From IMG/VR virus record IMGVR_UViG_3300029747_000004: DNA of 64,000 nucleotides, one strand, 5' to 3'. The notes beneath the pieces are model-generated. The model was not told the origin of the DNA. It worked only from the letters and a program-made list of their open reading frames with translations, and did no database searches. The position numbers and the translations under genes were made by a program. Positions 1,584 through 62,535 of this stretch are shown one piece after another. Every line of letters starts with the position of its first letter. Position 1 is the stretch's first letter. Origin of the DNA: a virus. Lineage: Duplodnaviria > Heunggongvirae > Uroviricota > Caudoviricetes.

Positions 1584-1778
1584 TTAATATTTTCTTAACT
1601 TCCACTCTGTTAATAAACTATTTAATTTATCTGTACCTTCAAACACCCAATATTTTTTATCTGTTTTTGGATGCTTTCCAGAAACAATCGACACCTGGCC
1701 ATTCTGAATCAAAAACTCTTTCAATGGCCAACTATAACAATAAAAATACTTATTCATATTGCACCTCATTGCATTCAT
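1584..1778 (-). CDS. small protein, paralogue of 8102..8284 product; partner ORF of HEG cassette
   Basis: 64 aa; shares YCYSxxLxxFLxxNG...W.....LNxLLxxW pattern with 8102..8284; preceded by conserved leader motif. Confidence 0.45.
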   Translation of the reverse strand: MNAMRCNMNKYFYCYSWPLKEFLIQNGQVSIVSGKHPKTDKKYWVFEGTDKLNSLLTEWKLRKY

Positions 1779-1787
1779 TTTGTATTG

Positions 1788-1973
1788 TCAAAATGTTAAT
1801 TTATCTGTAAAATAAATTTTTGTGTTATCAATTTCTTCAAAATTAAGTTTTACTTTATCGTCATTAATAAACGTATATGTATTATTGATATTTGACACCA
1901 TATAAAACCCATGAGCAAGTAGGTAGGTGCTCACGGTTTTGTCTTGTGTAATAATAAAATTTTTTTTAGACAT
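1788..1973 (-). CDS. hypothetical protein
   Basis: ORF in operon context. Confidence 0.3.
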   Translation of the reverse strand: MSKKNFIITQDKTVSTYLLAHGFYMVSNINNTYTFINDDKVKLNFEEIDNTKIYFTDKLTF

Positions 1974-1999
1974 CGTGATACCTCCTTTATAAACATAAT

Positions 2000-3541
2000 T
2001 TAATTATCATTTTTATTTCCGTCACGTGTCGCTTCGCCTTCATCAGATAATGGTGCATCAGACTCTGGCCTGCCATCAGAACCATCACCATTTTCAGATA
2101 GTCCAGCACTTTGCACATTGCTTGAAACAAGCGGAGTTGCCCATGACATAGTTCCAATTCCAAGGGCATTTTCTATAAAAGACATTCCACGTTCTTTTAC
2201 CGGGTTCACATTAGTTAAGGATGCCAATTCAAGTTTAACTGGAACACTATATTGTGCAAGTTTCAATAGCTTATCCACTCTATCATCAATAAAATATGGA
2301 GAAATATCACTGTATTCAACAATCATACCAGTTTCTCCAAGATGATTTAAAATCCATAGATTTTGCCACGCATTAATCTGCTCTATAGGAGCCATCGCAT
2401 CCATAGAGTCAAATTGAAGTGCCAATTTAAAACTTGTACTATTAGTAATTTTATTTTGATTTAGAACAATACCACCATTAGCATTAATAATATTTTCATA
2501 AGCTTTAGAAATAATATTAACATCATTAGCATTATTGCTATTAAAATCTATACTATCAAGTTTCATTGGAGACATTGCTAAAGCAACGTTATCTGGAACA
2601 GCAGACTGTAATTTCTGATAAAATGCATTTGCTAAATCAAGATCAATTTCAAAATCATCAACATCTTTTGTACCAGAAATTGTATCAATTTTTGCATAAA
2701 TAAGTTTATATGCCTCTAATTTATCCTTTAAATCTTGAACCGCCTGCAAATCTGCAAGACTAATAATCCCATCAAATAATCCAGAAAGTGGCGGAACTGG
2801 ATAATCTAAGTTATCTATGTTAATCTTTAAACAGAACGTATTCTCAATAGGAAGTTCCGCCCATCTCTGCGTGTTATCACTTTTATATTTATTATACAAT
2901 TTCTTAAAAATAGGGTCGTATACATCTAAATAATAAGAATTTGTACCAGAATCAAAGAATGAGCAATCAAACGCGAAATTTAGCACACCTCTGTAATACT
3001 GCTGACTTGAAATTTTACAATAATCCGGGTCAAGCAAATGTATAAAAAACGTTCCATCTTTTTCGGGGTCGCCATAACAGAACCCGTACACAACGTCGTT
3101 CTTCCAAGCCTGAAGCATACACTTCAAAATCTGACTTTTCATATCCATATTACGTACATACTTTGTAACACGCTCATAATTCTGTAATACACTATTCTGA
3201 TCAGGATCTTCTGTAAGTGGAATATCTGGATATACCGTCCACGACTTGCAATTAATTTGATATGCTTTAAAATTAATTAACCTTCTATATACATGAGATA
3301 CCGTATATAAATAATTCGAAAGTTTCCTAAGCTGTTTCTGGTTTGATTCACTTGCAGGATTCTTCAAATATGTACGTAAGCTGTCTCTAGAATACGTAGT
3401 GTATGTAATATTTTTATTTTTTGTCAAGTCAATAAGACTAAGCACGTCCTTCACAGCGGCAAACGCAGCTCTATTCTTTTCCTCACGACTTAACGTTTCA
3501 ATACGTTCCTTGTCTGTTAATTCTTTTGCCAAACTATTCAC
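2000..3541 (-). CDS. putative portal protein
   Basis: 513 aa immediately downstream of terminase large subunit; acidic/Gly-rich C-terminal tail typical of portals. Confidence 0.5.
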   Translation of the reverse strand: MNSLAKELTDKERIETLSREEKNRAAFAAVKDVLSLIDLTKNKNITYTTYSRDSLRTYLKNPASESNQKQLRKLSNYLYTVSHVYRRLINFKAYQINCKSWTVYPDIPLTEDPDQNSVLQNYERVTKYVRNMDMKSQILKCMLQAWKNDVVYGFCYGDPEKDGTFFIHLLDPDYCKISSQQYYRGVLNFAFDCSFFDSGTNSYYLDVYDPIFKKLYNKYKSDNTQRWAELPIENTFCLKINIDNLDYPVPPLSGLFDGIISLADLQAVQDLKDKLEAYKLIYAKIDTISGTKDVDDFEIDLDLANAFYQKLQSAVPDNVALAMSPMKLDSIDFNSNNANDVNIISKAYENIINANGGIVLNQNKITNSTSFKLALQFDSMDAMAPIEQINAWQNLWILNHLGETGMIVEYSDISPYFIDDRVDKLLKLAQYSVPVKLELASLTNVNPVKERGMSFIENALGIGTMSWATPLVSSNVQSAGLSENGDGSDGRPESDAPLSDEGEATRDGNKNDN

Positions 3542-3549
3542 CGCCTTTC

Positions 3550-7138: not shown

Positions 7139-8077
7139 TTATATAGCTAATTCGTCTTTGAATCTAAAAACAAATCCATGAGTATATGGTCTTTTATAGT
7201 TGCACACTTTCGAGATCATTTTATGTCCAATCCCAGTTATTCTTTCGGCATCTCTTGCAGATAAATATTCTGCAATAAAATTCATATCTAAATCATATTG
7301 TATAACCGATTTTGTGGGTGGTCTATATCTTGTTGCGTTTGGAAAAATAATATTTTTTGTCAAATCCTTCCATATACGTTTAGCCCGAATGTCTTTAATT
7401 GTATTTACAGAAATTCCATAATCATTTGCGATATCTTTATCAAATTCAGAATTTAACATTCTCTCTATAATATTTTCAACGTCATCTTTGCTTAATTTAA
7501 TTGATGGTTTCTTTCTTTTAATAAAGTTCATATCTTTTGTAAGTTCAACATATGAAGTTTTTTCATATATCCCATATATAGTACAGGCACTTACATTAAA
7601 CATTTCCGCTATATTAACTATTGGAATATCAGTATTTACAAGATAATCGCAAACATCAACAAATTGTTCAAGCGAAAATCCACGTTTGCAATTTTGCAAA
7701 TCTTCAATTGTGGTGTAATTGGTAGGAGTTTTTGAATTTATTTTATTATGATTATAAACACATATACCGTTAGCAACATAACAATCTATCCAATATTGCT
7801 CTCTTTCAAAGATATAGTCTCTATCTCCAACAACATTTTCTATAATTAAAAAATCAAAATTATCTTGTCCGTACTTATTCCACGCATTTTGCAAATGCAA
7901 ATTATGATGTCTATCATTGTATAAATCCCAAACATGTTGCCTCCATCTTCCATATATATCTACAGAAGAACCAATATATACACTACAATTTGCTAAATTC
8001 TTAATTAAATACACACCTGAAATAACTTCTCCACTAAATCTAAAAAACTTTTTTGACATAACAATAACCTCCAACAT
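7139..8077 (-). CDS. GIY-YIG homing endonuclease
   Basis: GVYLIKNLANCSVYIGSSVDIYGRWRQHV = GIY...YIG...R motif. Confidence 0.65.
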   Translation of the reverse strand: MLEVIVMSKKFFRFSGEVISGVYLIKNLANCSVYIGSSVDIYGRWRQHVWDLYNDRHHNLHLQNAWNKYGQDNFDFLIIENVVGDRDYIFEREQYWIDCYVANGICVYNHNKINSKTPTNYTTIEDLQNCKRGFSLEQFVDVCDYLVNTDIPIVNIAEMFNVSACTIYGIYEKTSYVELTKDMNFIKRKKPSIKLSKDDVENIIERMLNSEFDKDIANDYGISVNTIKDIRAKRIWKDLTKNIIFPNATRYRPPTKSVIQYDLDMNFIAEYLSARDAERITGIGHKMISKVCNYKRPYTHGFVFRFKDELAI

Positions 8078-8101: not shown

Positions 8102-8284
8102 CTACTTTTTAACAGACCATTGATTCAGTAAGTTATTTAATTGTTCTGTTCTAATATAAACCCAAAACATAGTTTTACTATTTGGATTTAAAGCACATAG
8201 CTCATACTTCAACCCATTTTTATATAAAAAATTTCTTAAATTCAAACTATAACAGCAATATAACTTATCCATCTTGTACCTCAT
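8102..8284 (-). CDS. small protein, paralogue of 1584..1778 product; partner ORF of HEG cassette
   Basis: 60 aa; conserved pattern shared with 1584..1778; preceded by leader motif variant. Confidence 0.45.
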   Translation of the reverse strand: MRYKMDKLYCCYSLNLRNFLYKNGLKYELCALNPNSKTMFWVYIRTEQLNNLLNQWSVKK

Positions 8285-8297
8285 TCATTTGTGCTGT

Positions 8298-9527
8298 CTA
8301 ATTTAAAATAAACTTTTCAGTTCCAACGCAACCATATTTTTTGTCAAAAATAAACATCTTACAAGCCGCTTTTGAACTTTTACCCAATTTATTGAACGCA
8401 TAAGGATCTGTTCCCTGAAATGACGGACATACTAATAGCTCCGTATCATGGCTGTCATGTTCATTGCCAGAAATAATTCTATCATTGTGAAAATGGCCAA
8501 TAAACACATAATCAATTAACTTTCTATGTTTAACACTCAAATCTTTAAGTGCCGTTTCTAAATTTTTAATTGTATGACCATGCATAGCCATAACATTAAA
8601 ATTATAAATCGGAACCTCAATATAATCATATCCGTCATTCAGATGCACAGACACTCTAGTATTGTATTTAAGCATATCTGCAATATAATGACCAATCACA
8701 TACTCCATATCCTCATGAACAAGTTCATTTGCCTTCGACCCAATTGGACGAGATTGTGAGTGATTTGACGTTGGAGTGTGGTAATAATCTATATAGCAAT
8801 ATGCTGACAATTCATTCAAAAAATTGGCAATTAACCTAGCCACGGTTACGGTTGCTTCAACAACAGGAACTTCATTCAATTTCAAATCTGTCAAACGCAA
8901 GATCCCCTGAATTGTATCAGCCAACTCAACAATATAAAACTTACTAATGTTATTAAATTGTATATATTCAACAAGCATATCAAGCAATTTATTGAATCTT
9001 TCTTCGCAGATTGATAGTGAATACTCATTTGTTTCAATCTCGAAGTTGGCCCCAGCTTGAATATCTGCAATTGTTAGCACATATTCCCTGCTATAATCTA
9101 TAAGATAATCACTATTTCCAGCAATAACTTTGGGCATTGTAAGGGTTTGGATAGCATCTCGAATATTTTCATAGAATAATTCCTCTCTACTATCAAACCT
9201 TAAGCTCCTATTGGCTTCAACTTTAGTCGCATATAACTTCTGACGTTCCTTCTCCAGCTCATACTTTGCCTTCTTTATCTCTTCAAGATATTTATCTTCA
9301 CCAACAATCTTGTCTGAGTTTGCCTCAAACACGTTCTTAAACGCCGCCCATGTTTTTCTATATGCGGATTCGGTTTTATTACACCCAAACTCGTCATTAA
9401 AAATTTGTGCCATCTGCGGCCAAGTAAAACCAAGAGTCTCTTTCATATTACAAACTCTATAAAAATACTGATCTTCACTCTCATTTTCCATACGCTTTAA
9501 GTTTTCATCCATGCTTATCACCATCAC
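8298..9527 (-). CDS. metallophosphoesterase-like protein
   Basis: C-terminal HGHT ... IGHFHNDR ... GNEHDSHD His/Asp clusters resembling the calcineurin-like phosphoesterase fold; N-terminal ~120 aa of unknown function. Confidence 0.4.
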   Translation of the reverse strand: MMVISMDENLKRMENESEDQYFYRVCNMKETLGFTWPQMAQIFNDEFGCNKTESAYRKTWAAFKNVFEANSDKIVGEDKYLEEIKKAKYELEKERQKLYATKVEANRSLRFDSREELFYENIRDAIQTLTMPKVIAGNSDYLIDYSREYVLTIADIQAGANFEIETNEYSLSICEERFNKLLDMLVEYIQFNNISKFYIVELADTIQGILRLTDLKLNEVPVVEATVTVARLIANFLNELSAYCYIDYYHTPTSNHSQSRPIGSKANELVHEDMEYVIGHYIADMLKYNTRVSVHLNDGYDYIEVPIYNFNVMAMHGHTIKNLETALKDLSVKHRKLIDYVFIGHFHNDRIISGNEHDSHDTELLVCPSFQGTDPYAFNKLGKSSKAACKMFIFDKKYGCVGTEKFILN

Positions 9528-9897: not shown

Positions 9898-10075
9898 TAT
9901 TCGTAATCCTCGTCATAGTTGACGCTAAGTTTTACCGTCTTATCCGCAAAATCTTCTAGCAAATCCTTAAGATCAATAAGCTCTCCGGTATCTATATTTT
10001 CAATTGCAATAGTACCATCTTCAATAGAAAGAATACCTTTTGCATTTAATGCATATTTGCGTGTAATATTTGCCA
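9898..10075 (-). CDS. small hypothetical protein (59 aa, MANITRKYALNAKG...)
   Basis: ATG with GGAGG RBS directly 3' of leader motif; not in the supplied ORF track (<60 aa). Confidence 0.3.
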
Positions 10076-10186
10076 TAATTTTGTACCTCCATGCTGTCTA
10101 TTCATTTTGTATTGTCGGGCGACATGCTATATATTCGACACGTCGCCCAGTATATCCTGTATAATTTATGTTAAATTTATATTATA

Positions 10187-11538: not shown

Positions 11539-11658
11539 ATTTGTTGTTCCTCGCTTTCATTGATTCTGTATAAAATTAATAGGGAATATCTATGCAATAT
11601 TCCCTTTTCAATATATGTATTTTTAATGCCAATTTCAAAAATACTAATAAATTACTAT

Positions 11659-51527: not shown

Positions 51528-51559
51528 GATTTATTTAGCAGTAAAAGAAGTGATGACGT

Positions 51560-52327: not shown

Positions 52328-52380
52328 ACAATACAAAATGAATGGTTGGCAAACCAGTTTAAACAAAGCTTCCACAGCAT

Positions 52381-52464: not shown

Positions 52465-52538
52465 GACTACAATTCCTCACCTTCACGTGGTGTAGTTGTT
52501 TAAACTAACGAGGAAATTAACAACGGAGGTACAAAACA

Positions 52539-52661
52539 ATGACTAAGACCGTAGAAATGCTTCAGGCACGAATCAATCTTCTAAAGCAGCGCGATCCTGT
52601 AGGAAATGCAAATATCATTCGAAAGATCCAGCGTGAAATTCGAAAACTAGAAGGAAATTAA
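52539..52661 (+). CDS. small hypothetical protein (40 aa) between tRNAs
   Basis: RBS AACGGAGGTACAAAACAATG. Confidence 0.25.
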   Translation: MTKTVEMLQARINLLKQRDPVGNANIIRKIQREIRKLEGN

Positions 52662-52676
52662 ATAACATGGTGGGAT

Positions 52677-52760
52677 GGCAGAGTTTGATTTAATGCACTA
52701 GATTCGAAATCTAGCGTGCTTTTAGGAGCACCGTGGGTTTAAATCCCACTCCTGCCGCCA
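52677..52760 (+). tRNA. tRNA-Ser(CGA), class II, encoded CCA; atypical D-arm and TTTAAAT T-loop
   Basis: Anticodon arm CTAGA-TTCGAAA-TCTAG, variable arm GTGCT-tttagg-AGCAC, T-arm GTGGG-TTTAAAT-CCCAC, 3' TCCTGCC-G-CCA. Confidence 0.5.
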
Positions 52761-53296
52761 GAGGGTTGGTGTATCCTGCGGAACTACTGCAAACACCGAG
52801 GCAACAGGCAATGTCTCGCTATGAAAATAGCAAAGATGTGGAACCGGATTTTACTAAAGCATAGTTCAGGACAATATGCGGAGTTAGTCGGAATTAAATG
52901 AGGAAACCCTGAGATCTACACATCAACCTGTTATGGGGGTAGGCTCCGAGAGCTAGCAGGAGAGCAAGGGCCTGTGGAAGTTTGGTTTGACTCCAGATGC
53001 CTCCACCACAACCGCAAGATGTGTTATGCGGTATAAAAATGACGAAACATCCTTTAAGGGTAGGGGATCTGAAATGTGAATCCAGCCACTTAAAGTGAGT
53101 CCTATAGCCCATGATACTAACGGACTATGCGTGAATGGGTGATTTATCACTCTAAAAAGTATCTGAAACGCTAGGCAAATTTGTTCGATGATAGTAAGCG
53201 CTACGCTACTATATAGTGTTTACCGGAGAATCCCTGTTGGTTATCGCTTATCCACAAGGTAGCTAGGATTTAATCTGAAAGAAAAAGCGAATTTAT
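52761..53296 (+). ncRNA. ORF-free GC-elevated block between tRNAs: candidate large structured ncRNA(s) (for example ROOL/GOLLD-type, group I intron, or tRNA-like modules ending in CCACCA)
   Basis: ~530 nt with no credible ORF on either strand, GC well above genome average, multiple GC helices, tRNA-like 3' end GCCTCCACCA at ~52985-53007. Confidence 0.3.
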
Positions 53297-53448
53297 TGTC
53301 CACTAGCTCAATTTGGTGAGAGCCACGGCCTTGATGGATTCATTTCGGGATAGTGTAGTTCAAATCTATGATCCATCACAAATAAGCCGTAAGCCCTAAC
53401 AAGGCATAGTCTGGGTTCGAGGCCCAGGTGGACTACCAGCCATGCTGA
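53297..53448 (+). tRNA. tRNA-like gene (loop CTT/ATAA if spliced, anticodon UAU?) interrupted after nt 34 by a ~50-nt acceptor/T-arm minihelix insert; encoded ACCA
   Basis: Acceptor TGTCCAC/GTGGACT, D-arm GCTC-AATTTGGTGA-GAGC, anticodon stem ACGGC/GCCGT, T-arm CTGGG-TTCGAGG-CCCAG; insert GATGGAT...ATCCATC with TTCAAAT loop. Confidence 0.35.
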
Positions 53449-53650
53449 CTTCGCATGTAAAACCAGTTGAGAAGAAACTGCTCGAAAGGTTATATAATAC
53501 GCAAATGGTGGCTGTCCGACGGCGCGGTTCGAGTCCGCAAGCTATAGGTTATATAATTCAAGTTAGTCTTCCGAGGCAATCCGAGTTCATCACGACTTTA
53601 TTAGAGTGATTGCTAAAGGATAAACGCAGGTGATGCTGTTAGTAGTCCAC

Positions 53651-53680
53651 GGTAGGTTCGGAGATACCCTACCATATTTT
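53651..53680 (+). terminator. hairpin GGTAGG-loop-CCTACC followed by ATATTTT (terminator-like) just before tRNA-Arg
   Basis: Direct reading. Confidence 0.35.
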
Positions 53681-53682
53681 AT

Positions 53683-53757
53683 GCAAGTATCGTCTAACGG
53701 ACAGGACATGAAGCTTCTACCTTCAGAATGAGAGTTCGACCCTTTCTACTTGCGCCA
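53683..53757 (+). tRNA. tRNA-Arg(UCU), encoded CCA
   Basis: Acceptor GCAAGTA/TACTTGC-G-CCA, anticodon arm TGAAG-CTTCTAC-CTTCA, T-arm GAGAG-TTCGACC-CTTTC. Confidence 0.6.
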
Positions 53758-53832
53758 TATTTGATTGTAGTATTAGTAGATACAAAAAGAGACAAATACG
53801 TCTAATGCACAATCTAATTAATTTAATTAGAG

Positions 53833-54597
53833 GTGTATTACAATATGAGAGTGGACCCGAATGCACACATAGGAGAACAATATGGAATATATGTAATTAA
53901 AAGCGTATCTGAAGAAAAAGACAAGTATGGACATTATATTTATAATGGTGTATGTAGTGAATGCGGATATGTTCATTCTGCAAAGTTGGATTATTTTAAA
54001 CGGAAACAGATCAATACATGTACTCACTTTAGTAAATTAACACAAGATCAGAAAGACGCCTGGTACGAAAAGAATAAAAAAGTTTGCTTATGTTGTGGGG
54101 AATATATTCCAATGGGCAATAAAACATTCTTTGAATATAAAATATCGAGATTTTGTAATCAAAATTGTGGCGCAATTTTCGCAAACAAAAATACAAAAAA
54201 GAAAACATATTATTGTCAAAAATGTGGTAAACCGATTGGATATGGCCATGATCAGTGTGGCAATAAACAGTTATGCGATGATTGCAACCCTTTTCGAGTT
54301 GATTGGGGCTTTATTACATACGGAGAAATGAAAAGCAGAAGAAAATATCAAGTTAATAGTAGAATCAGAGAAATTGCAAGAACATTATATAAAAACTCTG
54401 GAAGACCACAGATGTGTATGAATTGTGGGTATGATAAGCACTATGAAATTTGTCATATCAAAGGAATATCAACTCACTCAGATGATACATTTATATCAGA
54501 AATTAATAACATTGATAATTTGATTGCGCTATGTCCAAATTGCCACTGGGAATTCGACCACGGTTTGTTAGACTTGCAAGCGATAACACAATCTTAA
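53833..54597 (+). CDS. HNH homing endonuclease (paralogue of 51560..52327)
   Basis: CMNCGYDKHYEICHIKG...LIALCPNCHWEFDHG. Confidence 0.7.
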   Translation: MYYNMRVDPNAHIGEQYGIYVIKSVSEEKDKYGHYIYNGVCSECGYVHSAKLDYFKRKQINTCTHFSKLTQDQKDAWYEKNKKVCLCCGEYIPMGNKTFFEYKISRFCNQNCGAIFANKNTKKKTYYCQKCGKPIGYGHDQCGNKQLCDDCNPFRVDWGFITYGEMKSRRKYQVNSRIREIARTLYKNSGRPQMCMNCGYDKHYEICHIKGISTHSDDTFISEINNIDNLIALCPNCHWEFDHGLLDLQAITQS

Positions 54598-54599
54598 CT

Positions 54600-54628
54600 T
54601 GACAGAATACGGAAATCATGATACAATA
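54600..54628 (+). promoter_or_regulatory. sigma70-type promoter feeding tRNA cluster 2 (duplicate of 50795 module)
   Basis: ttgacagaatacggaaatcatgatacaat. Confidence 0.45.
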
Positions 54629-54721
54629 ACTACAGTTCAAGGGACAGTACAAAATGAATGGAAAGGCGCATGCAGCAAATGTTTAAGTTTAATATTTTGG
54701 TAAAATATGAAATAAACGCGT

Positions 54722-54844
54722 CTTGAGATATGGGAACGTCTGGACGACAGAATAAAGTGCACGGAGTGGGCGGCACGGACAGCAAATTTACATATGAAAT
54801 TACGGCATTAATTTTACTCCTTGGTTCAATTCCAAGGGTTCCCA
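54722..54844 (+). ncRNA. ~120-nt tRNA-like RNA (acceptor-like GGGAAC/GTTCCC closing helix, T-arm CCTTGG-TTCAATT-CCAAGG), Y-RNA/YrlA-like candidate
   Basis: Direct reading of complementary ends and canonical T-arm; long internal region with repeated CACGGA. Confidence 0.3.
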
Positions 54845-54864
54845 AATCCAACTAATTTTAATAT

Positions 54865-54992
54865 GCCGGTGGTAGCTTAACTGGATAGAGCGCGTACATC
54901 ACACAACGTGAAATGAAAATTTCGCGCACAGCAATTGAACAAGATAGGGCTGTTAACCCCGAGGTTGTTGGTTCGAGTCCAACACACCGGCA
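54865..54992 (+). tRNA. long tRNA-like gene (~125 nt) with internal GNRA-capped hairpin insert (CGTGAAAT-GAAA-ATTTCGCG); anticodon unresolved (GGGCTGTTAACCCC suggests GUU)
   Basis: Acceptor CCGGTGG/ACACCGG, D-arm GCTT-AACTGGATA-GAGC, T-arm GTTGG-TTCGAGT-CCAAC. Confidence 0.35.
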
Positions 54993-55275
54993 CAAGAGAA
55001 TAAAAGGCACTCACAGCAAATTTATATTAGAAGATTATAATGTGGTTTTATAGTAAGATAATAAGTGCCTTGATTATTGAAATGATAGAGAGACTAGCAG
55101 CAACTTTATTTAAAAAAGATATAAGTTATTATTGGTTCTGCCAGAAATGATATTTATGGTCTCTCGAAAAAAAATAAAATCTCCAAAGACATAAACAGCA
55201 ATCTTATATAACGACCTGACTTTTAACCAGACTACGTAAATGTGTGTCTTGAGATTTTAGAAATAAAATCAGATA

Positions 55276-56844
55276 ATGGAGGAAAGAGCAATGGAATTTA
55301 TGAACGCAGTAAAGCAGACTCTAAACAATGAATACAATATGTCCATCACTGAGAACGGAGCTGTTGGATTTAGAACTACTGGCAAGGAACTACTTGATCT
55401 TAATTTTGCGGTTGCTTCTCTTCGTAAGATGAGTGATGAGGAAGTAACTAAGAGATTTATGAAAGCATTTTGTGAGAATAAGATGCTGGCTATGCGTTGG
55501 TTGTTTTATGCTAGAGATGCAAGACAGGGGATCGGTGAGCGCAGACTATTTAGGGTTGTTATGAAACATCTTGTAGAATCTAATCCTGAAATGGTTATCC
55601 CTGTTATCAATCTGATTCCTGAATACGGTAGGTATGATGATTTGTGGTGTCTACTTGACAACGAGGAATCTGCAAAAGTTATATATCAGATTGTAGATAA
55701 ACAGCTTAAAGAAGATTGGGATAATATGAGTACTGGTAAGCCCATTTCTCTCACAGCCAAGTGGATGCCGTCAATTAACGCATCCTCTGAAAAGACTAAG
55801 GAATATGGTAAGAAGCTCTGCAAGGCACTTCACATGTCCGAACGTGAATATCGCAAGGCTCTCAGCAAGCTTCGTAAGTATCTCGATGTCGTTGAAGTTA
55901 AGATGTCCAACAAGGATTGGTCTGAAATCAAGTATGAAACAGTTCCTTCTCGTGCAAATCTTATCTATAACAGCGCATTCCTCAGAAATGATGAAGTACG
56001 TCGTAGGGAATATCTTGGAAAGCTTGAAAAAGGAGAAACGAAGATTAATGCGTCAACGCTTTTCCCCCATGATATTGTTCATAAATATGCTATTCACTAT
56101 GGGTGGAAATGTAGTCTAAATCAGAAGGACGCAACTATTGAGGCTCTGTGGAGGGCTCTGCCAGATACTGTAAACGGTTGCAGTAACACTATCGTTGTTG
56201 CTGATGGTTCTGGTAGCATGATAACTCAGGTTGACCGTAGTTCCAGTGTGACGGCACTTGAGGTTGCAAACGCACTTGCGATTTATTTTGCAGAACATTC
56301 TTCTGGTCAGTTTAAGGACAAGTACATTACTTTCTCTGAACGTCCACAAATCGTTGATTTCAGTAATGCCACTTCACTCCATGATAAGCTGCAGATTGCA
56401 CTGACACATGATGAGTGTGCGAATACCAATATTGAGAAGGTATTTGATCTGATTCTTGATACTGCGATTAAGAATAGAATGAAGCAGGAAAATCTTCCTC
56501 AGAATATTCTGATTATCTCAGATCAGGAATTTGATAGATGCGCTTCCTGTGGAAATAATAGATCATCGTGGGATTTTAAGAAACCGAACCAGAGGCTGTT
56601 CGATGTGATTGCTCAGAAGTATGCTAATGCAGGATACTCAATCCCAAGGTTAGTATTCTGGAACGTTAATAGTCGAACTGGCACAATCCCTGTAAAGGAA
56701 AATGAACTTGGTGTAGCACTTGTTAGCGGATTCTCTGTTAACATCGCCAAGATGGTTTTGAGCAACAAGCTTGATCCTTATGAGTGCCTACTCGAAACTC
56801 TGAACTCTGAGCGCTATGCTCCAATTGAAGCTGCGCTGAGTTAA
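55276..56844 (+). CDS. rsr: Ro60/Rsr orthologue (TROVE domain plus vWA domain with MIDAS)
   Basis: 522 aa; N-terminal helical region with LFYARDARQGIGERRLF; C-terminal VVADGSGSM (DxSxS MIDAS), ITFSE, ILIISDQEF, RLVFWNVNSRTG...GFSVN colinear with human Ro60 LLAVDVSASM ... VAFSDE ... FIVFTDNETF ... KLIVCGMTSNG...GFDTG. Confidence 0.65.
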   Translation: MEERAMEFMNAVKQTLNNEYNMSITENGAVGFRTTGKELLDLNFAVASLRKMSDEEVTKRFMKAFCENKMLAMRWLFYARDARQGIGERRLFRVVMKHLVESNPEMVIPVINLIPEYGRYDDLWCLLDNEESAKVIYQIVDKQLKEDWDNMSTGKPISLTAKWMPSINASSEKTKEYGKKLCKALHMSEREYRKALSKLRKYLDVVEVKMSNKDWSEIKYETVPSRANLIYNSAFLRNDEVRRREYLGKLEKGETKINASTLFPHDIVHKYAIHYGWKCSLNQKDATIEALWRALPDTVNGCSNTIVVADGSGSMITQVDRSSSVTALEVANALAIYFAEHSSGQFKDKYITFSERPQIVDFSNATSLHDKLQIALTHDECANTNIEKVFDLILDTAIKNRMKQENLPQNILIISDQEFDRCASCGNNRSSWDFKKPNQRLFDVIAQKYANAGYSIPRLVFWNVNSRTGTIPVKENELGVALVSGFSVNIAKMVLSNKLDPYECLLETLNSERYAPIEAALS

Positions 56845-57081
56845 TAAATCTTAAACCGTGGTCGCTCCACATTCTATAAGGTTATATCAATTTTAGTATT
56901 AATGCTGCATTGGGTGTCGCTCATTCATGTAAGTCAAACATTATCTAGAAATTGTAGTTAGTAATAGAAAATAATCCAAAGGAGGATTTTGCTTATGATT
57001 GTATCTGCTTATTCTGATTTGGAGGACGAGCCGAAGGGCTAGTCTATGTCCCGAGTAAGACATAAAACTGCTCAATTATAT

Positions 57082-57203
57082 GGCCATGTAGCCCAATTGG
57101 AAGAGGCAACAGACCGTCGATAGCCAGAGCGTAGCGAGGTCATCACTTGCATCGACGACCATTAAAATCTGTACAGGTATGGGTTCGAATCCCATTATGG
57201 CCA
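57082..57203 (+). ncRNA. tRNA-like RNA (~120 nt) with a ~50-nt hairpin (CGTCGAT...ATCGACG) in place of/inside the anticodon loop; Y-RNA/YrlA-like or intron-containing tRNA candidate
   Basis: Acceptor GGCCATG/TATGGCC, D-arm GCC-AATTGGAAG-GGC, stem ACAGA/TCTGT, T-arm ATGGG-TTCGAAT-CCCAT. Confidence 0.35.
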
Positions 57204-57361
57204 AAGTAGCAATATCAACAACCTCCACGTGGTGCTACTTGGGTAATGCTAATAGTTGATAGGCGCGTAATGGTGCTGGACTGGCCTGATTGGGGAGAGT
57301 CGTTTCGAATAATCTTCTGTGTGGAGAAGATAAAATACCAATCACCACACATTTATATTAT

Positions 57362-57439
57362 GGCGCGGTAGTCCAACTGGCAGGAGACAAATCACTCAAA
57401 ATGATTACAGTATGGTTTCGAATACCATCCGCGCTACCA
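57362..57439 (+). tRNA. class-I tRNA with anticodon CAA (Leu-type anticodon on a short-variable-arm body; atypical), encoded CCA
   Basis: Acceptor GGCGCGG/CCGCGCT-A-CCA, anticodon arm AATCA-CTCAAAA-TGATT, T-arm ATGGT-TTCGAAT-ACCAT. Confidence 0.45.
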
Positions 57440-57683: not shown

Positions 57684-58676
57684 ATGTTTAGTATTGTGAT
57701 TGGTGTCCTACTAATTATTGTAGCAATTATTGCGCGTATTGTTTGTCCAAAGCTTGGTTCTAGTCGTGTAGGAGTACTTATAAGTGTGGCTGCGGCTGTG
57801 CTTGCAGTAATTATTATTGGAGCTTCTTGCATTTCTATTGTTCCAACTGGTCATACCGGAATCCTTACTACGTTTGGGCGCGTAGAAGACAGGAATCTTC
57901 CAGAAGGTGTAAATTTTCATGCGCCATGGCAGAATATCACAACAATGACGAATAAGGAACAGATTTTTACAGAAACAAATATGTGTTTTTCTGCGGATCT
58001 ACAAGAGGTATCATATACTTATACTGTAAAATATAATCTGTCATCGTCCGCAACTCCTAACATTTACAAGACCGTTGGCGTTAATTACTTTAACGTTCTT
58101 ATTAAGCCTCATGTAAATAATGCAATTAAAGCAGAATTTGGCCTTGTTAAAGCCGAAAACATGACGGAATTACGTACACAGCTTCAGGACAATATCGACA
58201 CTACAGTTTCGAATTTTGCGTCTCAGTATGGTATTAGTGTTACCGTGGTAATTGACGATTTTGATTTCTCTGATGCTTATACAGATGCTATTGAAGCAAA
58301 ACAGGTAGCAGAGCAGGAAGCTCTTCGTGATAAGACGCAGCAGCAAATGGAAACAGAACGTACTAGACAGGCAGCAGAACGCACTAAGATTCAAGCTGAA
58401 AACGACGCTGCGGTTCGTGAAATTAATGCCAATGCAGATGCAGAAGCGGCTCGCATTAAGGCTCAGGCAGATTTTGAAGTAGCCCAACTTGAGGCAGATG
58501 CAATCGCTTACAAGGGTGAAAAAGAAGCGGAAGCAACAAAAGCTCTTGCCGAGGCAATTACTAATGACATTGTTGCTTACGAATATGCGAAGAACTGGTC
58601 CGGCGATCTTCCGACTTATATGATGGGCACTGGAGCACTTCCTATTATTGATATTCCAATGGGTGAGGGGAATTAA
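57684..58676 (+). CDS. SPFH/band-7 (prohibitin/HflKC-like) membrane protein with long coiled-coil C-terminus
   Basis: N-terminal TM helices then VPTGHTGILTTFGRVEDRNLPEGVNFHAPWQNI (SPFH core), Ala/Glu-rich coiled coil. Confidence 0.7.
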   Translation: MFSIVIGVLLIIVAIIARIVCPKLGSSRVGVLISVAAAVLAVIIIGASCISIVPTGHTGILTTFGRVEDRNLPEGVNFHAPWQNITTMTNKEQIFTETNMCFSADLQEVSYTYTVKYNLSSSATPNIYKTVGVNYFNVLIKPHVNNAIKAEFGLVKAENMTELRTQLQDNIDTTVSNFASQYGISVTVVIDDFDFSDAYTDAIEAKQVAEQEALRDKTQQQMETERTRQAAERTKIQAENDAAVREINANADAEAARIKAQADFEVAQLEADAIAYKGEKEAEATKALAEAITNDIVAYEYAKNWSGDLPTYMMGTGALPIIDIPMGEGN

Positions 58677-58705
58677 TTCCCTCATCTTTTTTTTATTTAT
58701 ATATC

Positions 58706-58735
58706 TTGACAAATTGAAAAAACGTGCTATAATGA
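58706..58735 (+). promoter_or_regulatory. sigma70-type promoter TTGACA-17-TATAAT followed by leader motif
   Basis: cttgacaaattgaaaaaacgtgctataat. Confidence 0.5.
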
Positions 58736-58765
58736 CAATACAAAATGAATGGAAGGGGAGATAGC

Positions 58766-59911
58766 TTGATTTATCTTGATAATGCTGCTACTACACGTAT
58801 GTATCCAGAGGCAATACAGGCAGCAACTGACGTTATGACAAACTACTGGGCTAATCCATCAAGTAGTTATAGTATCGCCGATAACCCTAGAATTTTAATC
58901 GAAAATATACGGCAGCAGTTTGCGGATGATTTAAATTGCATTCCAGAAGAATTAATTTTTACTAGCTCTGGTTGTGAAGCAAACAACCTTGCAATTATTG
59001 GTTTTCTAAAAAATAATACAGGATATGAATTTTACACAAGTGATATGGAACACGCTTCAATTAGTGAATTTGTTGAAAGTCGTCCTGCAACGCTAGGTCA
59101 TGTTACTATTCCTGTAAATGAAATTGGACAGATTAATCCTGATAAACTTAGAATTTTGTTTATAGAGCGACAAAGACTTTCAAATAGGAAACCCTTTGTT
59201 TCTATTCAGGCGGCTAATTCAGAGATTGGGATAAAGCAGGATATCAAAGCGCTGGCCGAGGTTGTACATCAATACAATGGAATTATTCATTGTGATGCGG
59301 TGCAGCTTTTCCCGGAACAACGCATTAATGTTGACGATTGGAATGTGGATATGCTATCAATTTCGGCGCAAAAATTCCATAGTGGACGCGGGTGCGGTGT
59401 ATTATTTGTTCGAGACAACATTGAAATTTCACCGACAACTTATGGAAGTCAAGAAAACCACCGACGCGGAGGCTCGTATAATACCTCAGCTATAGTAGCC
59501 GCAGGTAAGGCGCTTGAAATTACTAGACTATATGATTCAAAATCTTACGTAAAATCGCTTCGTGACAAACTACTGAACAAACTATTAACCATACCAGATA
59601 CGAGGCTCAACGGCCCTAGAAACAAAGATAATAGATTAGTAAATAACATAAGCTTGACTATTGATGGTGTGTCTGCGGAGCGACTTGTTATTCTTTGTGA
59701 CTTGGCCGGTGTTATGATAGCAAAAGGTTCAGCATGTCAATCTCATGAGCCAACTCCGAGTAAGACACTATTAGCTATAGGACTTACACCAGAACAAGCA
59801 CTAAGTACAATTAGAATTACTCTTGATGAGTTTAATACAGAGGAAGAGATTGAACAGGCCGCAAGCATCATTTCAAAACTAGTTTGGAGGATTAGAAATA
59901 ATGAGGCGTAA
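58766..59911 (+). CDS. NifS/IscS-like cysteine desulfurase (class V PLP aminotransferase), TTG start
   Basis: LIYLDNAATTRMYPE N-terminus; SISAQKFHSGRGCGVLFV (PLP-Lys region); C-terminal active-site Cys region GSACQS. Confidence 0.7.
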   Translation: MIYLDNAATTRMYPEAIQAATDVMTNYWANPSSSYSIADNPRILIENIRQQFADDLNCIPEELIFTSSGCEANNLAIIGFLKNNTGYEFYTSDMEHASISEFVESRPATLGHVTIPVNEIGQINPDKLRILFIERQRLSNRKPFVSIQAANSEIGIKQDIKALAEVVHQYNGIIHCDAVQLFPEQRINVDDWNVDMLSISAQKFHSGRGCGVLFVRDNIEISPTTYGSQENHRRGGSYNTSAIVAAGKALEITRLYDSKSYVKSLRDKLLNKLLTIPDTRLNGPRNKDNRLVNNISLTIDGVSAERLVILCDLAGVMIAKGSACQSHEPTPSKTLLAIGLTPEQALSTIRITLDEFNTEEEIEQAASIISKLVWRIRNNEA

Positions 59912-60482
59912 TTTGTGTAGTATTTTCTTGATTGTTGTGTCGATTTTCCTTTTGTTAAGTACGTTGTTTTATAACTATCAATTAAATACTAAAGATAAAC
60001 TACTTCAATATGTGCAAGAAAAGCTTGCTTCTGTTACTGAAAAACTAGAGTTGACTATTAGAAAATCAGATGAATTAGCCGTTCAATTAGATCACACGAC
60101 CAAATCCTTAGACAAAGCAAACGAGACGATTTCAGCGCTAAAAAGTATTGAATATGAATTAGTTTATCTAGGAGATTTTAAACTAACTCATTATTGCATT
60201 GAGGAATTTGACCATATTTGTGGCAATGGTGATGGGCTCACAGCAACTGGGACAAAAATAGCAGTAGGGGAAACTATTGCGGTAGATCCTTCACTGATTC
60301 CGTATGGATCTCAAGTGTACATTGAAGGCTATGGTTGGTACACGGCTGATGATTGTGGAGGATCCGTCAATGGCAAGCACATTGACATTGCAGTTGAAAC
60401 ACACGAAGAAGCACTATCTAAAGGTGTTAAAAATGGTGGTGTGTGGATTTTAGTTCAAAAAGGGCTTGACAATACAAAATGA
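59901..60482 (+). CDS. 3D-domain (MltA/YuiC-like) cell-wall-active protein with N-terminal TM and coiled coil
   Basis: GLTATGTKIAVGETIAVDPSLIPYGSQVYIEGYGWYTADDCGGSVNGKHIDI matches 3D-domain pattern. Confidence 0.55.
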   Translation: MRRNLCSIFLIVVSIFLLLSTLFYNYQLNTKDKLLQYVQEKLASVTEKLELTIRKSDELAVQLDHTTKSLDKANETISALKSIEYELVYLGDFKLTHYCIEEFDHICGNGDGLTATGTKIAVGETIAVDPSLIPYGSQVYIEGYGWYTADDCGGSVNGKHIDIAVETHEEALSKGVKNGGVWILVQKGLDNTK

Positions 60483-60496
60483 ATGATGTATAATAG
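60466..60496 (+). promoter_or_regulatory. sigma70-type promoter with motif as spacer (TTGACA-ATACAAAATGAATGATG-TATAAT)
   Basis: Direct reading. Confidence 0.55.
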
Positions 60497-60534
60497 TACC
60501 AGAAACTGGAAAATAAATTGATGGGTGAACGAGG

Positions 60535-61551
60535 ATGCAAGTCAATGAGCTAAAAGAATATTTGTTAAACAATGAGTTGTGTGAAGATGTTCTTACAGCT
60601 CTTGGCTGTGGACATGTTCGTAACAGGGGTGAGTATATCTCTGCTCAAAATCCAGACGGGAATAATAAACAAGCAATTACGCTTTACCTCAACGAAAATC
60701 TCAACTGCATTGATTATACGCGACAGATTTCTAAAACAAAAAGAGCAACTGACATTTTTGATTTAGTGGCGTATTTTAAACAGTGCACGTTCGCTGAGTC
60801 TATGAAATGGGTTTGCGATACAGTGGGACTGGACTACTACCACGAACCAGATGATGTGCCTGAAAGCTTAAAAATACTTCGTTTCCTTCGAGAAATGAGT
60901 AATGACGGTAATGATGAAGATAACAGATCAGTAGTCCCAATTCCAGAAGAAATATTAAATTATTATCTTCCTTACCCAAATAAAATGTTTGAAAATGATG
61001 GAATATCTCTAGATATACAACAGGAATTGGGTTATGGTTATGACCCACAAACCAATAGAATCACAATTCCTATTAGAACGCCAATTGGAGATTTATGCGG
61101 TGTGAAGGGGCGATTATTAGGAGAACCAGACGAGTATAACCCAAAATATGTTTATATCGAACCAACTGTAAAATCTAAAATTTTGTATGGATTATATGAG
61201 AATAAGAATTATATCAAAAATAGCAATCAACTTTTAATTTTTGAAGCAGAAAAGAGTGTGGCTCAATGTGCATCAAATGGTATACGAAATTGTGTGGCGA
61301 TTGGCGGTAAATCTATTTCAAAAACTCAGATGGAGTTGATTATAAGAACAGGGTGTGCGCCTATTGTTGCGTTAGACAAAGGAATTTCAGTAGATGAAAT
61401 TAAATCTGTATCATCAGTATTCCCTGAAAATATACCGGTATATTATATTTACGATAAAGATAATATTTTACTAGACAAACAGTCCCCTAGTGATGACTTT
61501 GAAAAATTTAGATATCTTTTTGGAAATAATATTTATGAATTGAGGCGATAG
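60535..61551 (+). CDS. DnaG-like primase (divergent zinc-binding region plus TOPRIM-like C-terminus)
   Basis: FEAEKSV and VALDKG acidic motifs in a TOPRIM-like arrangement; N-terminal region with primase-zinc-finger-like spacing; inference. Confidence 0.4.
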   Translation: MQVNELKEYLLNNELCEDVLTALGCGHVRNRGEYISAQNPDGNNKQAITLYLNENLNCIDYTRQISKTKRATDIFDLVAYFKQCTFAESMKWVCDTVGLDYYHEPDDVPESLKILRFLREMSNDGNDEDNRSVVPIPEEILNYYLPYPNKMFENDGISLDIQQELGYGYDPQTNRITIPIRTPIGDLCGVKGRLLGEPDEYNPKYVYIEPTVKSKILYGLYENKNYIKNSNQLLIFEAEKSVAQCASNGIRNCVAIGGKSISKTQMELIIRTGCAPIVALDKGISVDEIKSVSSVFPENIPVYYIYDKDNILLDKQSPSDDFEKFRYLFGNNIYELRR

Positions 61552-61552
61552 A

Positions 61553-62323
61553 ATGGGGAGAGGTTGGGAAGATTTAATAGGTCAAAGATTTGGCAGATTA
61601 ATTGTATTAGAACGTGTAAATGATTACATTTCTCCTAAAGGAAGGCATATTCCGCAATGGAGGTGCATTTGTGATTGTGGGGAAGAGTGCATCGTAACCA
61701 GCAATAATTTAAAAAAGAAAAATGGCACAAAGTCGTGTGGGTGTATTAGACGCGAAAATGCTGCTATTATATCTAAAAAAACACGACATAAAATATTAAA
61801 GTATGACATGTCAAATGAATTTGGAATAGGATATTTATCTAATACAGGCAATCCATTTTACTTTGACGAGGAAGATTTTGACAAAATTAAAGATTATTGT
61901 TGGTATGAATGTGTTACCTGCAGTGGGCATCATGACGTTCGAGCATGGAGCAAAGACGAGAAGAAAGCAATTTTGTTGCATCAATTGATAACTGGAAAGA
62001 AAAATATAGATCATAAAAACCGCAATCCTTTGGATAATAGAAAAATAAATCTAAGAGATGCAACACCATCACAACAAGTACAAAACCAACCCGTAAGAAA
62101 AACAAACACTAGTGGTTTTATTGGAGTACGATTTTGTAAGAACATACAGAAATGGCGAGCTAGGATAGTCATCAATTATAAAGAGATTAATCTTGGATGT
62201 TTTATAAATAAAGATGACGCAATTCGTGCTAGGCTTAAAGCAGAAGCAGAGTACTTTGGTGAATTTGCTCCGCAACGTAATCTATTTGAAGAATACGGAA
62301 TTCAGACAATACAAAATGAATGA
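61553..62323 (+). CDS. HNH homing endonuclease with C-terminal AP2 DNA-binding domain
   Basis: HKNRNPLDNRKINLR (HNH core) and GFIGVRFCKNIQKWRARIVINYKEINLGCFINKDDAIRARLKAEAEYFGEFA (AP2). Confidence 0.7.
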   Translation: MGRGWEDLIGQRFGRLIVLERVNDYISPKGRHIPQWRCICDCGEECIVTSNNLKKKNGTKSCGCIRRENAAIISKKTRHKILKYDMSNEFGIGYLSNTGNPFYFDEEDFDKIKDYCWYECVTCSGHHDVRAWSKDEKKAILLHQLITGKKNIDHKNRNPLDNRKINLRDATPSQQVQNQPVRKTNTSGFIGVRFCKNIQKWRARIVINYKEINLGCFINKDDAIRARLKAEAEYFGEFAPQRNLFEEYGIQTIQNE

Positions 62324-62535
62324 GGATGATGCTTTTGATCATTGTAGAAAGCGGCTGTGTAGGGTGCCCGACAGAGATGGGTTGCTTATATGAAGCTTGC
62401 CCGTATTATAAAATTACACGTTTTTACTGTGATAAATGTCATGAAGAAACTGAGGGCTTATATAAATGGAATAATGAAGAATGGTGCTTGGACTGTATTA
62501 TTAATGATTTAGAAAGGGTTGAATATGATGATTAA
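62320..62535 (+). CDS. hypothetical Cys-rich protein
   Basis: ORF. Confidence 0.3.
   Translation: MRMMLLIIVESGCVGCPTEMGCLYEACPYYKITRFYCDKCHEETEGLYKWNNEEWCLDCIINDLERVEYDD

Follow-up and report, generated by a model that had tools for sequence, protein, structure and literature searches.

An oriented repeat in an uncultured SPbeta-like phage and its candidate reader, a repressor of the MrpR/SroF family

The element and its promoters

The window analysed here, the whole 64,000-nt stretch of IMG/VR record IMGVR_UViG_3300029747_000004 (Caudoviricetes), repeats one short asymmetric element, the 17-mer ACAATACAAAATGAATG, at the boundaries of its genes. By its gene content the phage is a distant relative of SPbeta: tblastn against SPbeta finds homologues of YonG, YonJ, YonO, YopR, YoqD, YorI, YorJ and YorM, with the SPbeta order kept. 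Called genes and RNAs cover 85% of the window. Two of the genes recur throughout this account. One (13335–16088) encodes a 917-aa YonO-type RNA polymerase with a Pfam RdRP match, 21–37% identical to proteins of Clostridium phage c-st, Enterocloster phages and SPbeta-like phages; the other (39447–40361, plus strand) encodes a 304-aa protein of the MrpR/SroF family, which has an integrase fold. A megablast search with 7 kb of sequence surrounding the polymerase gene gave no match in the phage collection, relatives being found at the protein level only. The close ones are metagenomic contigs of 155–176 kb from an uncultured lineage, among them IMGVR_UViG_3300045988_129163, 3300022661_000062, 3300045988_159943 and 3300045988_103712. 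A single locus came from the genome collection, in a Faecalimonas (Lachnospiraceae) metagenome-assembled genome whose MrpR-like protein is 55% identical, and the host of the window phage is probably a member of the Lachnospiraceae.

The 12-mer core of the element, ACAAAATGAATG, has 16 exact copies in the window against 0.05 expected, and the 17-mer has 28 matches with up to three mismatches against 1.0 expected (those at 20666+, 47152− and 50477+ are at chance level). A position weight matrix (PWM) built from 25 clear copies was scanned over the window, with dinucleotide shuffles of the window as control. It returns 27 strong sites of 15.8–32.8 bits, where shuffle maxima averaged 10.2 bits and the highest reached 15.0. 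Two further copies carry one-base indels (8282–8297 on the minus strand, a deletion; 48825–48842, an insertion), giving for G-ACAATACAAAATGAATG 27 strong sites and two indel variants where about 1–2 would be expected by chance. The repeated element is real, as the first-pass annotation had held in describing a recurrent, strand-specific sequence. Its word 'invariant' was too strong, with 1–4 mismatches to the 17-mer in 11 of the 27 sites. The copies it placed at 16104 and 20386 exist but are weaker (GTAGTAC..., 20.4 and 15.8 bits), those at 8281 and 48826 exist but with a 1-nt deletion and a 1-nt insertion, respectively, and several of its coordinates were off by 1–8 nt. Acceptance of the copy at 20384 rests partly on its place behind a perfect promoter, because its 15.8 bits are close to the top shuffle value.

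Information in the motif is confined to 18–19 nt, the flanks being at background. A G stands at position 0 in 21 of 25 sites, completing the GACA of a −35 hexamer, and a purine follows position 17. Every one of the 27 sites is intergenic or overlaps the last codons of the upstream gene, and an upstream open reading frame (ORF) that runs into the motif often ends on the motif's own TGA (11656, 18876, 60469). All 27 are co-oriented with the local genes, on the minus strand left of ~20.4 kb and on the plus strand to the right, so that the orientation rule of the earlier annotation holds throughout. Site density is ~0.4 per kb; 11 sites lie on strong promoters, three on weak ones, and ~13 in gaps of 20–60 nt or over an upstream stop codon. 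Co-orientation, gene-boundary placement and density together suggest an orientation-dependent role.

Sigma-A-type promoters scoring at least 11/12 number 13 in the window, against 3.3 ± 1.9 in shuffles. The motif accompanies 11 of the 13 in sense orientation, including all seven perfect (12/12) ones; the two that lack it are the repressor gene's own promoter and a match antisense to the surrounding genes, the latter probably a chance match. Both promoter contexts named in the first-pass annotation are found. At four promoters (37432, 45676, 48888 and 60466) the motif is the spacer of TTGACA-N17-TATAAT, its ACA forming the end of the TTGACA, and two of these four are preceded by terminator-like hairpins. 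At seven others (19459(−), 20442(−), 40680, 50311, 50784, 54599 and 58706) it starts 0–18 nt past the −10. Weak 10/12 promoters lie by three more sites (29728, 33212, 52328), a strength not above background. The figure of 28 transcription units is thus unsupported: a promoter of at least 11/12 is present at 11 sites and a weak one at three, and about half of the copies lie in operons with no recognisable promoter. Nor does the motif always end 3–10 nt before a GGAGG ribosome-binding site (RBS), as had been proposed. At 11656, 22861 and 54644 the next called gene is 117, 153 and up to 630 nt off, tRNA genes come next at 50832 and 52328, and the rule fails at the four spacer sites too.

The ~13 copies with no credible promoter (1772, 10099, 11656, 16103, 18876, 22861, 34213, 35654, 40992, 41837, 43390, 48017 and 62306) fill very short gaps between genes of one operon, in the orientation of transcription. 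Comparison with relatives argues that they are not decayed leftovers, because all 10 relatives examined have retained the copy at 40992 in the orthologous place although their flanks differ. Two of these copies directly follow G+C-rich hairpins that have no T-tract, GGGCGAC...GTCGCCC at 10116–10148(−) and GGAGTGGGCGTAAGCTCACTCC at 43357–43389(+); such hairpins could be stabilisers of RNA 3' ends or terminators for a non-host polymerase.

The copies are listed below by position and strand. Loci of relatives compared with the window bear L-numbers, L002 being the SPbeta record.

1772–1788 (−): exact 17-mer, 30.8 bits; intergenic, no good promoter; abuts the stop of ORF 1788–1973, with a 57-aa ORF 14 nt on and then the GIY-YIG gene 622–1542.
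8282–8297 (−): degenerate copy ACAGCACAAATGAATG with a 1-nt deletion, directly after the stop of the YonJ-like gene 8298–9527; a 56-aa ORF lies 9 nt on, then the GIY-YIG gene 7139–8059, an arrangement paralogous to the 1772 cassette.
10099–10115 (−): 29.8 bits; intergenic, no good promoter, 22 nt to a 59-aa ORF.
11656–11672 (−): 29.8 bits; the GIY-YIG gene 11659–12390 ends on the motif's TGA; 117 nt upstream of the ClpP-like gene 10912–11538.
16103–16119 (−): weaker copy GTAGTACAAAATGAATT, 20.4 bits, just before the YonO-like polymerase gene; overlaps the end of ORF 16106–16705.
18876–18892 (−): 26.5 bits; intra-operon; preceded by TTGACA with no −10 hexamer after it; overlaps the stop of the YopX-like gene 18879–19313.
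19406–19422 (−): 26.7 bits; 7 nt past the −10 of promoter 19459–19431 (TTGACA-17-TATACT, 11/12, TG).
20384–20400 (−): weakest accepted copy GTAGTACAAAATGAAAA, 15.8 bits; downstream of promoter 20442–20414 (12/12, TG).
22861–22877 (+): 29.3 bits; 1 nt after the stop of ORF 22059–22859, in a G+C-rich region; no RBS, next gene 153 nt on.
29728–29744 (+): 32.8 bits; 12 nt past the weak extended −10 promoter 29686–29715 (AAGACA-18-TATAAT with TG, 10/12), which alone is not above background.
33212–33228 (+): 26.5 bits; spacer of a weak promoter (TTTACA-18-TATATT, 10/12) before a DUF932 gene.
34213–34229 (+): 24.2 bits; intra-operon; abuts the stop of the DUF932 gene, 30 nt to a GP88-like gene.
35654–35670 (+): 29.3 bits; within the 3' end of a DNA methylase ORF, 12 nt to the next gene; orthologous site in L004 and L005.
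37435–37451 (+): spacer of the sro-like lysogeny operon promoter 37432–37460 (TTGACA-17-TACAAT, 11/12).
40726–40742 (+): 16 nt past the −10 of promoter 40680–40708 (12/12, TG), which overlaps the terminator-like hairpin 40669–40697; orthologous sites in eight relatives.
40992–41008 (+): 24.3 bits; no promoter; abuts the stop of a 70-aa ORF, 13 nt to a Bro-N/ANT gene.
41837–41853 (+): 29.8 bits; intra-operon, no promoter; 5 nt past the ANT gene stop, 22 nt to the next start.
43390–43406 (+): 27.2 bits; directly after a hairpin with no T-tract and before a SegE-like endonuclease gene; in L004 and L005 the same site directly precedes an AAA_24 gene.
45679–45695 (+): spacer of promoter 45676–45704 (TTGACA-17-TATAAT, 12/12), with the terminator-like hairpin 45633–45654 ahead.
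48017–48033 (+): exact 17-mer, 31.3 bits; intergenic, no good promoter, 27 nt to the next start; 50 nt past the YorI-like gene 46398–47966, a putative helicase (weak tblastn match, E 2e-6; no Pfam family).
48825–48842 (+): degenerate copy ACAACACAAAAATGAATA with a 1-nt insertion, 49 nt upstream of the site at 48891.
48891–48907 (+): spacer of promoter 48888–48916 (TTGACA-17-TATACT, 11/12, TG).
50359–50375 (+): 25.8 bits; 18 nt past the −10 of promoter 50311–50339 (12/12, TG).
50832–50848 (+): 18 nt past the −10 of promoter 50784–50812 (12/12, TG); tRNA-Asn next, at 50989.
52328–52344 (+): exact 17-mer directly after an HNH gene stop; weak promoter GTGGCA-17-TATAAT at 52296–52324 (10/12); no RBS, 36 nt to tRNA-Thr (52381–52464).
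54644–54660 (+): 31.3 bits; 15 nt past the −10 of promoter 54599–54627 (TTGACA-17-TACAAT, 11/12, TG).
58735–58751 (+): 32.8 bits; abuts the −10 of promoter 58706–58733 (12/12, TG) and therefore covers the start-site region; terminator-like hairpin 58661–58687 ahead.
60469–60485 (+): spacer of promoter 60466–60494 (TTGACA-17-TATAAT, 12/12) before a YorJ-like primase gene; overlaps the stop of a 3D-domain (YorM-like) gene.
62306–62322 (+): exact 17-mer, 31.3 bits; no promoter; overlaps an HNH gene stop.

A repressor of the MrpR/SroF family and its operon

The ORF at 39435–40361 most likely begins at the ATG at 39447, as in all of its homologues, and yields the 304-aa protein. Pfam MrpR_N_CB matches this protein with 41.1 bits (cut-off 27), while its MrpR_C_cat match is weak (22.5 bits, below the cut-off). 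In BLASTP the protein aligns with SPbeta YopR (E 1e-15; 24% identity), and the family profile matches PDB entries 8a0a (MrpR), 8bj6 and 8bjv (YopR) and 9rd5 with E ~1e-14 over residues 1–267. There are more than 400 homologues; both MrpR Pfam domains are present in all but one of the 120 listed. The gene stands towards the end of an operon whose order is the same in relatives, with SPbeta yopMNOPQR for comparison.

37504–40663 (+): sro-like operon, made up of three small ORFs, an integrase-family gene (38379–39374), the MrpR-like gene and a 92-aa ORF.
39393–39422 (+): motif-free promoter TTGATA-18-TATAAT (11/12), just upstream of the MrpR-like gene.

The integrase-family gene (Pfam Phage_integrase, E 1e-31) lies directly ahead of the MrpR-like gene, an order also seen for yopR in SPbeta. 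At the operon promoter (37432–37460) the −35, motif and −10 are kept in 10 relatives, with MrpR-like proteins down to 42% identical, while the flanks diverge. At the position of the proximal promoter the relatives examined have a near-consensus TTGAYA −35 and a TATAAT-like −10 (less clear in L008, L022 and L025). A motif-free proximal promoter, with the motif in the promoter of the long operon, is the arrangement expected of a repressor that has to remain on while it shuts off the long operon and all the rest. A 'half motif' at the repressor's start codon (39432–39449) is not conserved in relatives and was rejected as a site.

The spacer of the proximal promoter varies in content among relatives. 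It holds a reverse-oriented motif copy, TTGACAAAATTAATATTGTACTGT, in the most distant of them (L025 at ~9940–9975, L026 and L027 at ~9950–9985) and an SOS-box-like CAAACATTTGTTCG in the T-type relatives L006, L016 and L023, and the window has the palindrome ATGAATATTCAT at the corresponding spot. SOS boxes (GAAC-N4-GTTC) match twice in the window, which is chance level, and neither match lies upstream of a candidate antirepressor.

MrpR (YopR, SroF) is the master repressor of SPbeta and has a tyrosine-recombinase fold (PMC10516654). Its site, the SPbeta repeated element (SPBRE), lies in about ten promoter regions, with binding shown by chromatin affinity purification sequencing (ChAP-seq) and electrophoretic mobility shift assay (EMSA; PMC10516654). 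The phi3T homologue SroF is reported to bind its 26-bp box as a monomer, wrapping almost completely around the DNA and reading 24 of 26 bp; its boxes are asymmetric, many, and spread over distant genome regions (bioRxiv 10.1101/2025.11.27.690993). From ten MrpR-bound promoters of the SPbeta record we derived SPBRE as (TAG)ACAAATACAAAWAATATGTATA. It occurs in two settings, as the spacer of TAGACA-N17-TATAAT (yonP, yorE, yorZ, yosX, yorM) and just past a promoter, abutting the RBS (yopM, yopV and the second yonX copy).

The window resembles this system in several ways: it encodes the same repressor family, the repressor gene is distal in a multi-gene operon whose promoter carries the element (yopM–yopR in SPbeta, with SPBRE at yopM), and a long non-palindromic repeat is scattered over distant promoters, either as the 3' part of the −35 plus spacer or past the −10 abutting an RBS. 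In either phage the element also marks the operon that contains the YonO-type polymerase gene, at yonP in SPbeta and at 19406 and 16103 in the window. The 5' halves of SPBRE and the window motif have GACAA(A)TACAAA in common with a 1-nt offset (GACAAATACAAA versus GACAATACAAA), whereas the 3' halves, TGAATG in the motif and AATATGTATA in SPBRE, are unrelated. The phi3T box is different again, and sequence identity is therefore not expected within the family. The window differs in the length of its conserved stretch (18–19 nt versus a 22–26 bp box), in number (27–29 sites in 64 kb versus about a dozen in the 134 kb of SPbeta) and in that about half of its sites are intra-operon with no promoter.

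Relatives, comparable arrays and neighbouring genes

Orthologous sites, including the promoter-less 40992, keep the motif or a clade variant of it while their flanks diverge, which argues that it is under selection in the relatives. In nine of ten relatives the motif or its variant is the most over-represented 12-mer, and in the tenth (L026) it is among the top three. Where the MrpR-like protein is 82% identical, ten orthologous sites carry the motif without change. Almost every copy reads ...AAAATTAATG where the protein is 55–69% identical, ...AAAATTATTG at 46%, and ...AAAATTAA followed by variable bases at 42–43%. The 5' half, ACAATACAAAAT, is constant across relatives, while the 3' half varies by repressor clade (GAATG, TAATG, TATTG), and such a lineage-wide change is what co-evolution with a trans-acting reader predicts. 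Residues aligning with the DNA-reading helices of SroF are invariant in the family (ARTSL in the core-binding helix, FRWVYRK in the major catalytic-domain helix); if the alignment places them correctly, they would fit the constant part of the site.

A query with the polymerase recovered only relatives that are 99% identical in that protein; their repressor is 82% identical and their motif unchanged, and the comparison therefore does not discriminate between repressor and polymerase as the co-varying partner. The T-type contigs are not among the polymerase matches; their polymerase has therefore diverged as well. On the same IMG/VR contigs the polymerase (L031–L033, L035) is 99% and the repressor (L009, L011, L013, L021) 82% identical to that of the window, so the lysogeny module has seemingly been exchanged or evolves much faster.

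Outside the SPbeta group, there is a likeness to mycobacteriophage L5 and the Cluster A gp71-type repressors. The L5 repressor binds more than 20 asymmetric sites as a monomer, some on promoters and some in short intergenic spaces; the sites are oriented in keeping with transcription, and repression is lost when a site is turned round (PMC9283540). The window has the same combination of more than 20 asymmetric sites on promoters and in short intergenic gaps, with all 27 sites, the ~13 promoter-less ones included, co-oriented with transcription, and the density is likewise ~0.4–0.5 per kb. The L5 site, too, contains the −35 hexamer of the early promoter. The two systems differ in the reader, a helix-turn-helix (HTH) plus 'stoperator' domain in L5 and a tyrosine-recombinase fold in the window, in the site (13 nt and another sequence in L5), in host phylum, and in that a block of elongation is demonstrated for L5 and only inferred in the window. 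None of the Pfam models matched by the 50 window proteins scanned is named after the L5 repressor or its stoperator domain, and a scan of the same 50 proteins against Pfam found no sigma factor. Because the folds are unrelated, the window array is an analogue of the L5 system, and the likeness would be one of convergence and not of membership.

Two other known arrays bear comparison. The start-associated sequences (SAS) of Cluster K mycobacteriophages are also short asymmetric motifs, co-oriented and upstream of many start codons. They lie at a fixed short distance from the start codon and include the RBS, whereas the window motif is 8 to at least 153 nt from the next start, forms four promoter spacers and twice precedes tRNA genes. 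Promoters of T7-type phage RNA polymerases (17–23 nt) are compact, conserved and oriented as well, in phages that encode their own polymerase, but the window motif is not limited to a single temporal class of genes and overlaps host-type promoters.

Among the neighbours of the motif are at least seven free-standing homing-endonuclease genes (GIY-YIG/NUMOD1, SegE-like and HNH) in 64 kb, most of them adjoining a copy: 622–1542(−), 7139–8059(−), 11659–12390(−), 43419–44564(+), 51560–52327(+), 53845–54597(+) and 61553–62323(+). Motif, 56/57-aa ORF and GIY-YIG gene form two paralogous cassettes, at 1772 and 8282, and the SegE-like gene sits as an insertion between site 43390 and the AAA_24 gene relative to L004 and L005. 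The region 50989–57439 holds six tRNA genes (Asn, Gly, Thr, Ser, Arg, Leu) and a drum RNA (53183–53294, 59 bits) with HNH genes interspersed; the copies at 50832 and 52328 head parts of this cluster. At Rfam gathering thresholds the window has six tRNA matches and the drum RNA; ARAGORN also calls six tRNAs, five of them common to both. Cargo behind motif-bearing promoters comprises a DUF2828/DUF7788/VWA protein (55291–56844), an SPFH/Band-7 protein (57786–58676) and a class-V NifS-like aminotransferase (58745–59911).

A G+C-rich island (22001–24000, 45.8% versus 36% overall) contains ORF 22059–22859 (266 aa, no Pfam match), followed 1 nt past its stop by a motif copy and then ~150 nt with no called gene. 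This ORF may be a moron that is active in the lysogen, in which case the motif could serve to stop read-through. Between the leftward promoter at 19459 and the HTH_36 gene (19758–20105), the AT-rich stretch 19480–19770 has no called gene and dense short direct repeats, among them three copies of GTATACTGAGTATAC-TTTGGT at 23-nt spacing (19698–19764), alongside several further repeat pairs and palindromes; an origin of iteron type is a possible function, as is partition or packaging. Close to the DUF932 gene, in their early regions, L005 (347–1624) and L006 (1104–2366) have a gene for a reverse transcriptase (RVT_1), and the window has none at the corresponding position.

Interpretation and rival explanations

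We consider it likely, from sequence comparison and from the precedent of SPbeta and phi3T, that the phage's own master repressor, the 304-aa MrpR/SroF-family protein at 39447–40361, has the element as its recognition site. Of the roles offered in the first-pass annotation this is the third, an asymmetric site for a phage regulator, now with a candidate protein. Its remark that a non-palindromic site speaks against a classical dimeric repressor was correct, because in SPbeta and phi3T the homologous proteins bind, as monomers, to a long repeat that is not palindromic. The element is most likely a variant of a known silencing system and not a new kind of signal.

By analogy with those homologues, the repressor would clamp as a monomer around one long asymmetric site. 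In the lysogen, repressor bound at the 11 spacer or post-−10 sites would stop initiation by host RNA polymerase, blocking polymerase binding or promoter escape from its spacer or start-site positions. The units silenced would be the early, replication, tRNA and cargo genes, the operon with the phage RNA polymerase gene and the long lysogeny operon, while the repressor gene would stay on from its motif-free proximal promoter. We infer, more tentatively and from the L5 precedent, that the ~13 promoter-less copies may block elongation, as extra landing sites at which the repressor would halt read-through in the manner of L5 stoperators. That an integrase-fold repressor independently evolved orientation-dependent stoperators of the L5 kind is a conceivable reading of them, to which we give a little less than even weight.

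Several observations weigh against the repressor as reader. The 3' half of the motif is unlike SPBRE and the phi3T box is unlike both, so that sequence similarity alone is weak support. At the ten MrpR-bound genes, every SPBRE copy that we read is next to promoter-like sequence or a little ahead of an RBS, which leaves the promoter-less half of the window sites with no precedent in the repressor family. Position 13 is no clean specificity switch, since L023 mixes G and T sites and L007 and L022 have one G site each. SroE (YopQ), the second SPbeta repressor, has no counterpart in the window. That the 5' half stays the same across repressors as little as 42% identical could also reflect a more conserved reader, and the motif might in truth be read by the integrase-family protein next door or by some other factor.

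Such a reader, another phage protein binding the motif as DNA, might be the YopP-like integrase-family protein (38379–39374), a small protein of the operon or the HTH protein at 19758–20105. The integrase-family gene adjoins the MrpR-like gene in all relatives examined and SPbeta-like phages are reported to have more than one repressor (SroE), but binding to such a repeat is demonstrated only for MrpR/SroF, the invariant residues aligned to the SroF helices would suffice for the constant 5' half, and nothing specific implicates the other proteins; we regard this as unlikely. An action in RNA, as a cleavage site in polycistrons or a site for a translational regulator or enhancer by the RBS, would suit the strict sense orientation, the many copies that end 8–30 nt ahead of a start codon in very short gaps, and the A-rich sequence, predicted to be somewhat less paired than its flanks (0.62 versus 0.53 unpaired). 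It fails at the four spacer sites, two of them behind terminator-like hairpins, because these fully conserved copies sit between −35 and −10, upstream of the transcript start, and are untranscribed from those promoters. Nor does it account for the two copies before tRNA genes, the one before 153 nt of untranslated sequence, or the position-0 G that completes the GACA of a −35 hexamer. Folding of the 27 sites against shuffled controls gave a mean z-score of −0.1, with no complementarity to the RBS and no RNA structure signal (the sole outlier, 43390 at −5.4, is explained by its upstream hairpin), and at no copy is there an Rfam family at gathering score. An RNA signal, the second of the first-pass roles, is accordingly quite improbable. 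Least probable of all, and hardly credible, is a sequence for recombination or mobility, whether a linker for module exchange or a target or landing pad of homing endonucleases. At least seven GIY-YIG or HNH genes adjoin motif copies, two of them in the paralogous cassettes at 1772 and 8282; in comparison with L004 and L005, site 43390 is directly followed by the inserted SegE-like gene; and the relatives are mosaic (polymerase 99%, repressor 82% identical). Yet the placement on 11 of the 13 best promoters and the lineage-wide 3'-half differences would go unexplained, and the majority of copies are not near an endonuclease gene. Intergenic DNA is a common place for homing endonucleases to settle, and their association with the motif may therefore be secondary.

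The first role proposed, a promoter or initiation element for the YonO-like RNA polymerase (13335–16088) with each copy starting a transcript just before an RBS, is also very unlikely. The compact, sharp-edged and strictly co-oriented motif, usually followed by a purine and then an RBS, recalls the promoters of single-subunit polymerases; hairpins with no T-tract abut 10099 and 43390 upstream, as if one unit ended and another began; and 10099 and 11656 lie in a part of the window that is syntenic with the surroundings of the YonO start in SPbeta. However, the window motif heads genes of all classes, among them the lysogeny operon, replication, tRNA and cargo genes and the polymerase gene itself, and is embedded in 11 near-consensus host-type promoters. 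In SPbeta, YonO transcribes the late genes from a single mapped start, which lies upstream of yonK (PMC5467207). The homologous SPbeta repeat is bound by MrpR (PMC10516654), and the published SPbeta and phi3T boxes differ along with their SroF repressors. No SPBRE copy was found between yonK and yonN, where the YonO start lies at ~60.3 kb of the phage record (an approximate coordinate conversion, used loosely). That 1.7-kb gap (L002 9153–10833, SPbeta 59153–60833) has no annotated gene and looks like a large structured RNA, with no obvious counterpart in the window; it is the region of an unannotated non-coding RNA mentioned by Forrest et al. (PMC5467207). A search of the YonO literature from 2018 onward returned unrelated papers only. 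A double use, in which the motif is the repressor site and its promoter-less copies also serve the YonO-like polymerase as start or re-start signals, directly or through a phage factor, seems more improbable still. If true, one sequence would silence both host- and phage-polymerase transcription, and it would be the first promoter sequence for a YonO-type polymerase; as it stands, the finding does not reveal such a promoter.

If the MrpR/SroF-family protein is indeed the reader, silencing by a monomeric, integrase-shaped repressor at a long asymmetric site would reach beyond Bacillus, and a large family of uncultured phages, with contigs of about 160–175 kb, would share it; the repressor has more than 400 homologues. 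The regulon would be readable straight from the sequence, as 27–29 sites in 64 kb. Half of the sites being intra-operon and in fixed orientation would suggest that an unrelated fold has converged on the stoperator strategy of L5. The clade-specific 3' halves (GAATG, TAATG, TATTG), set against invariant helices, would then form a natural series for the evolution of immunity specificity.

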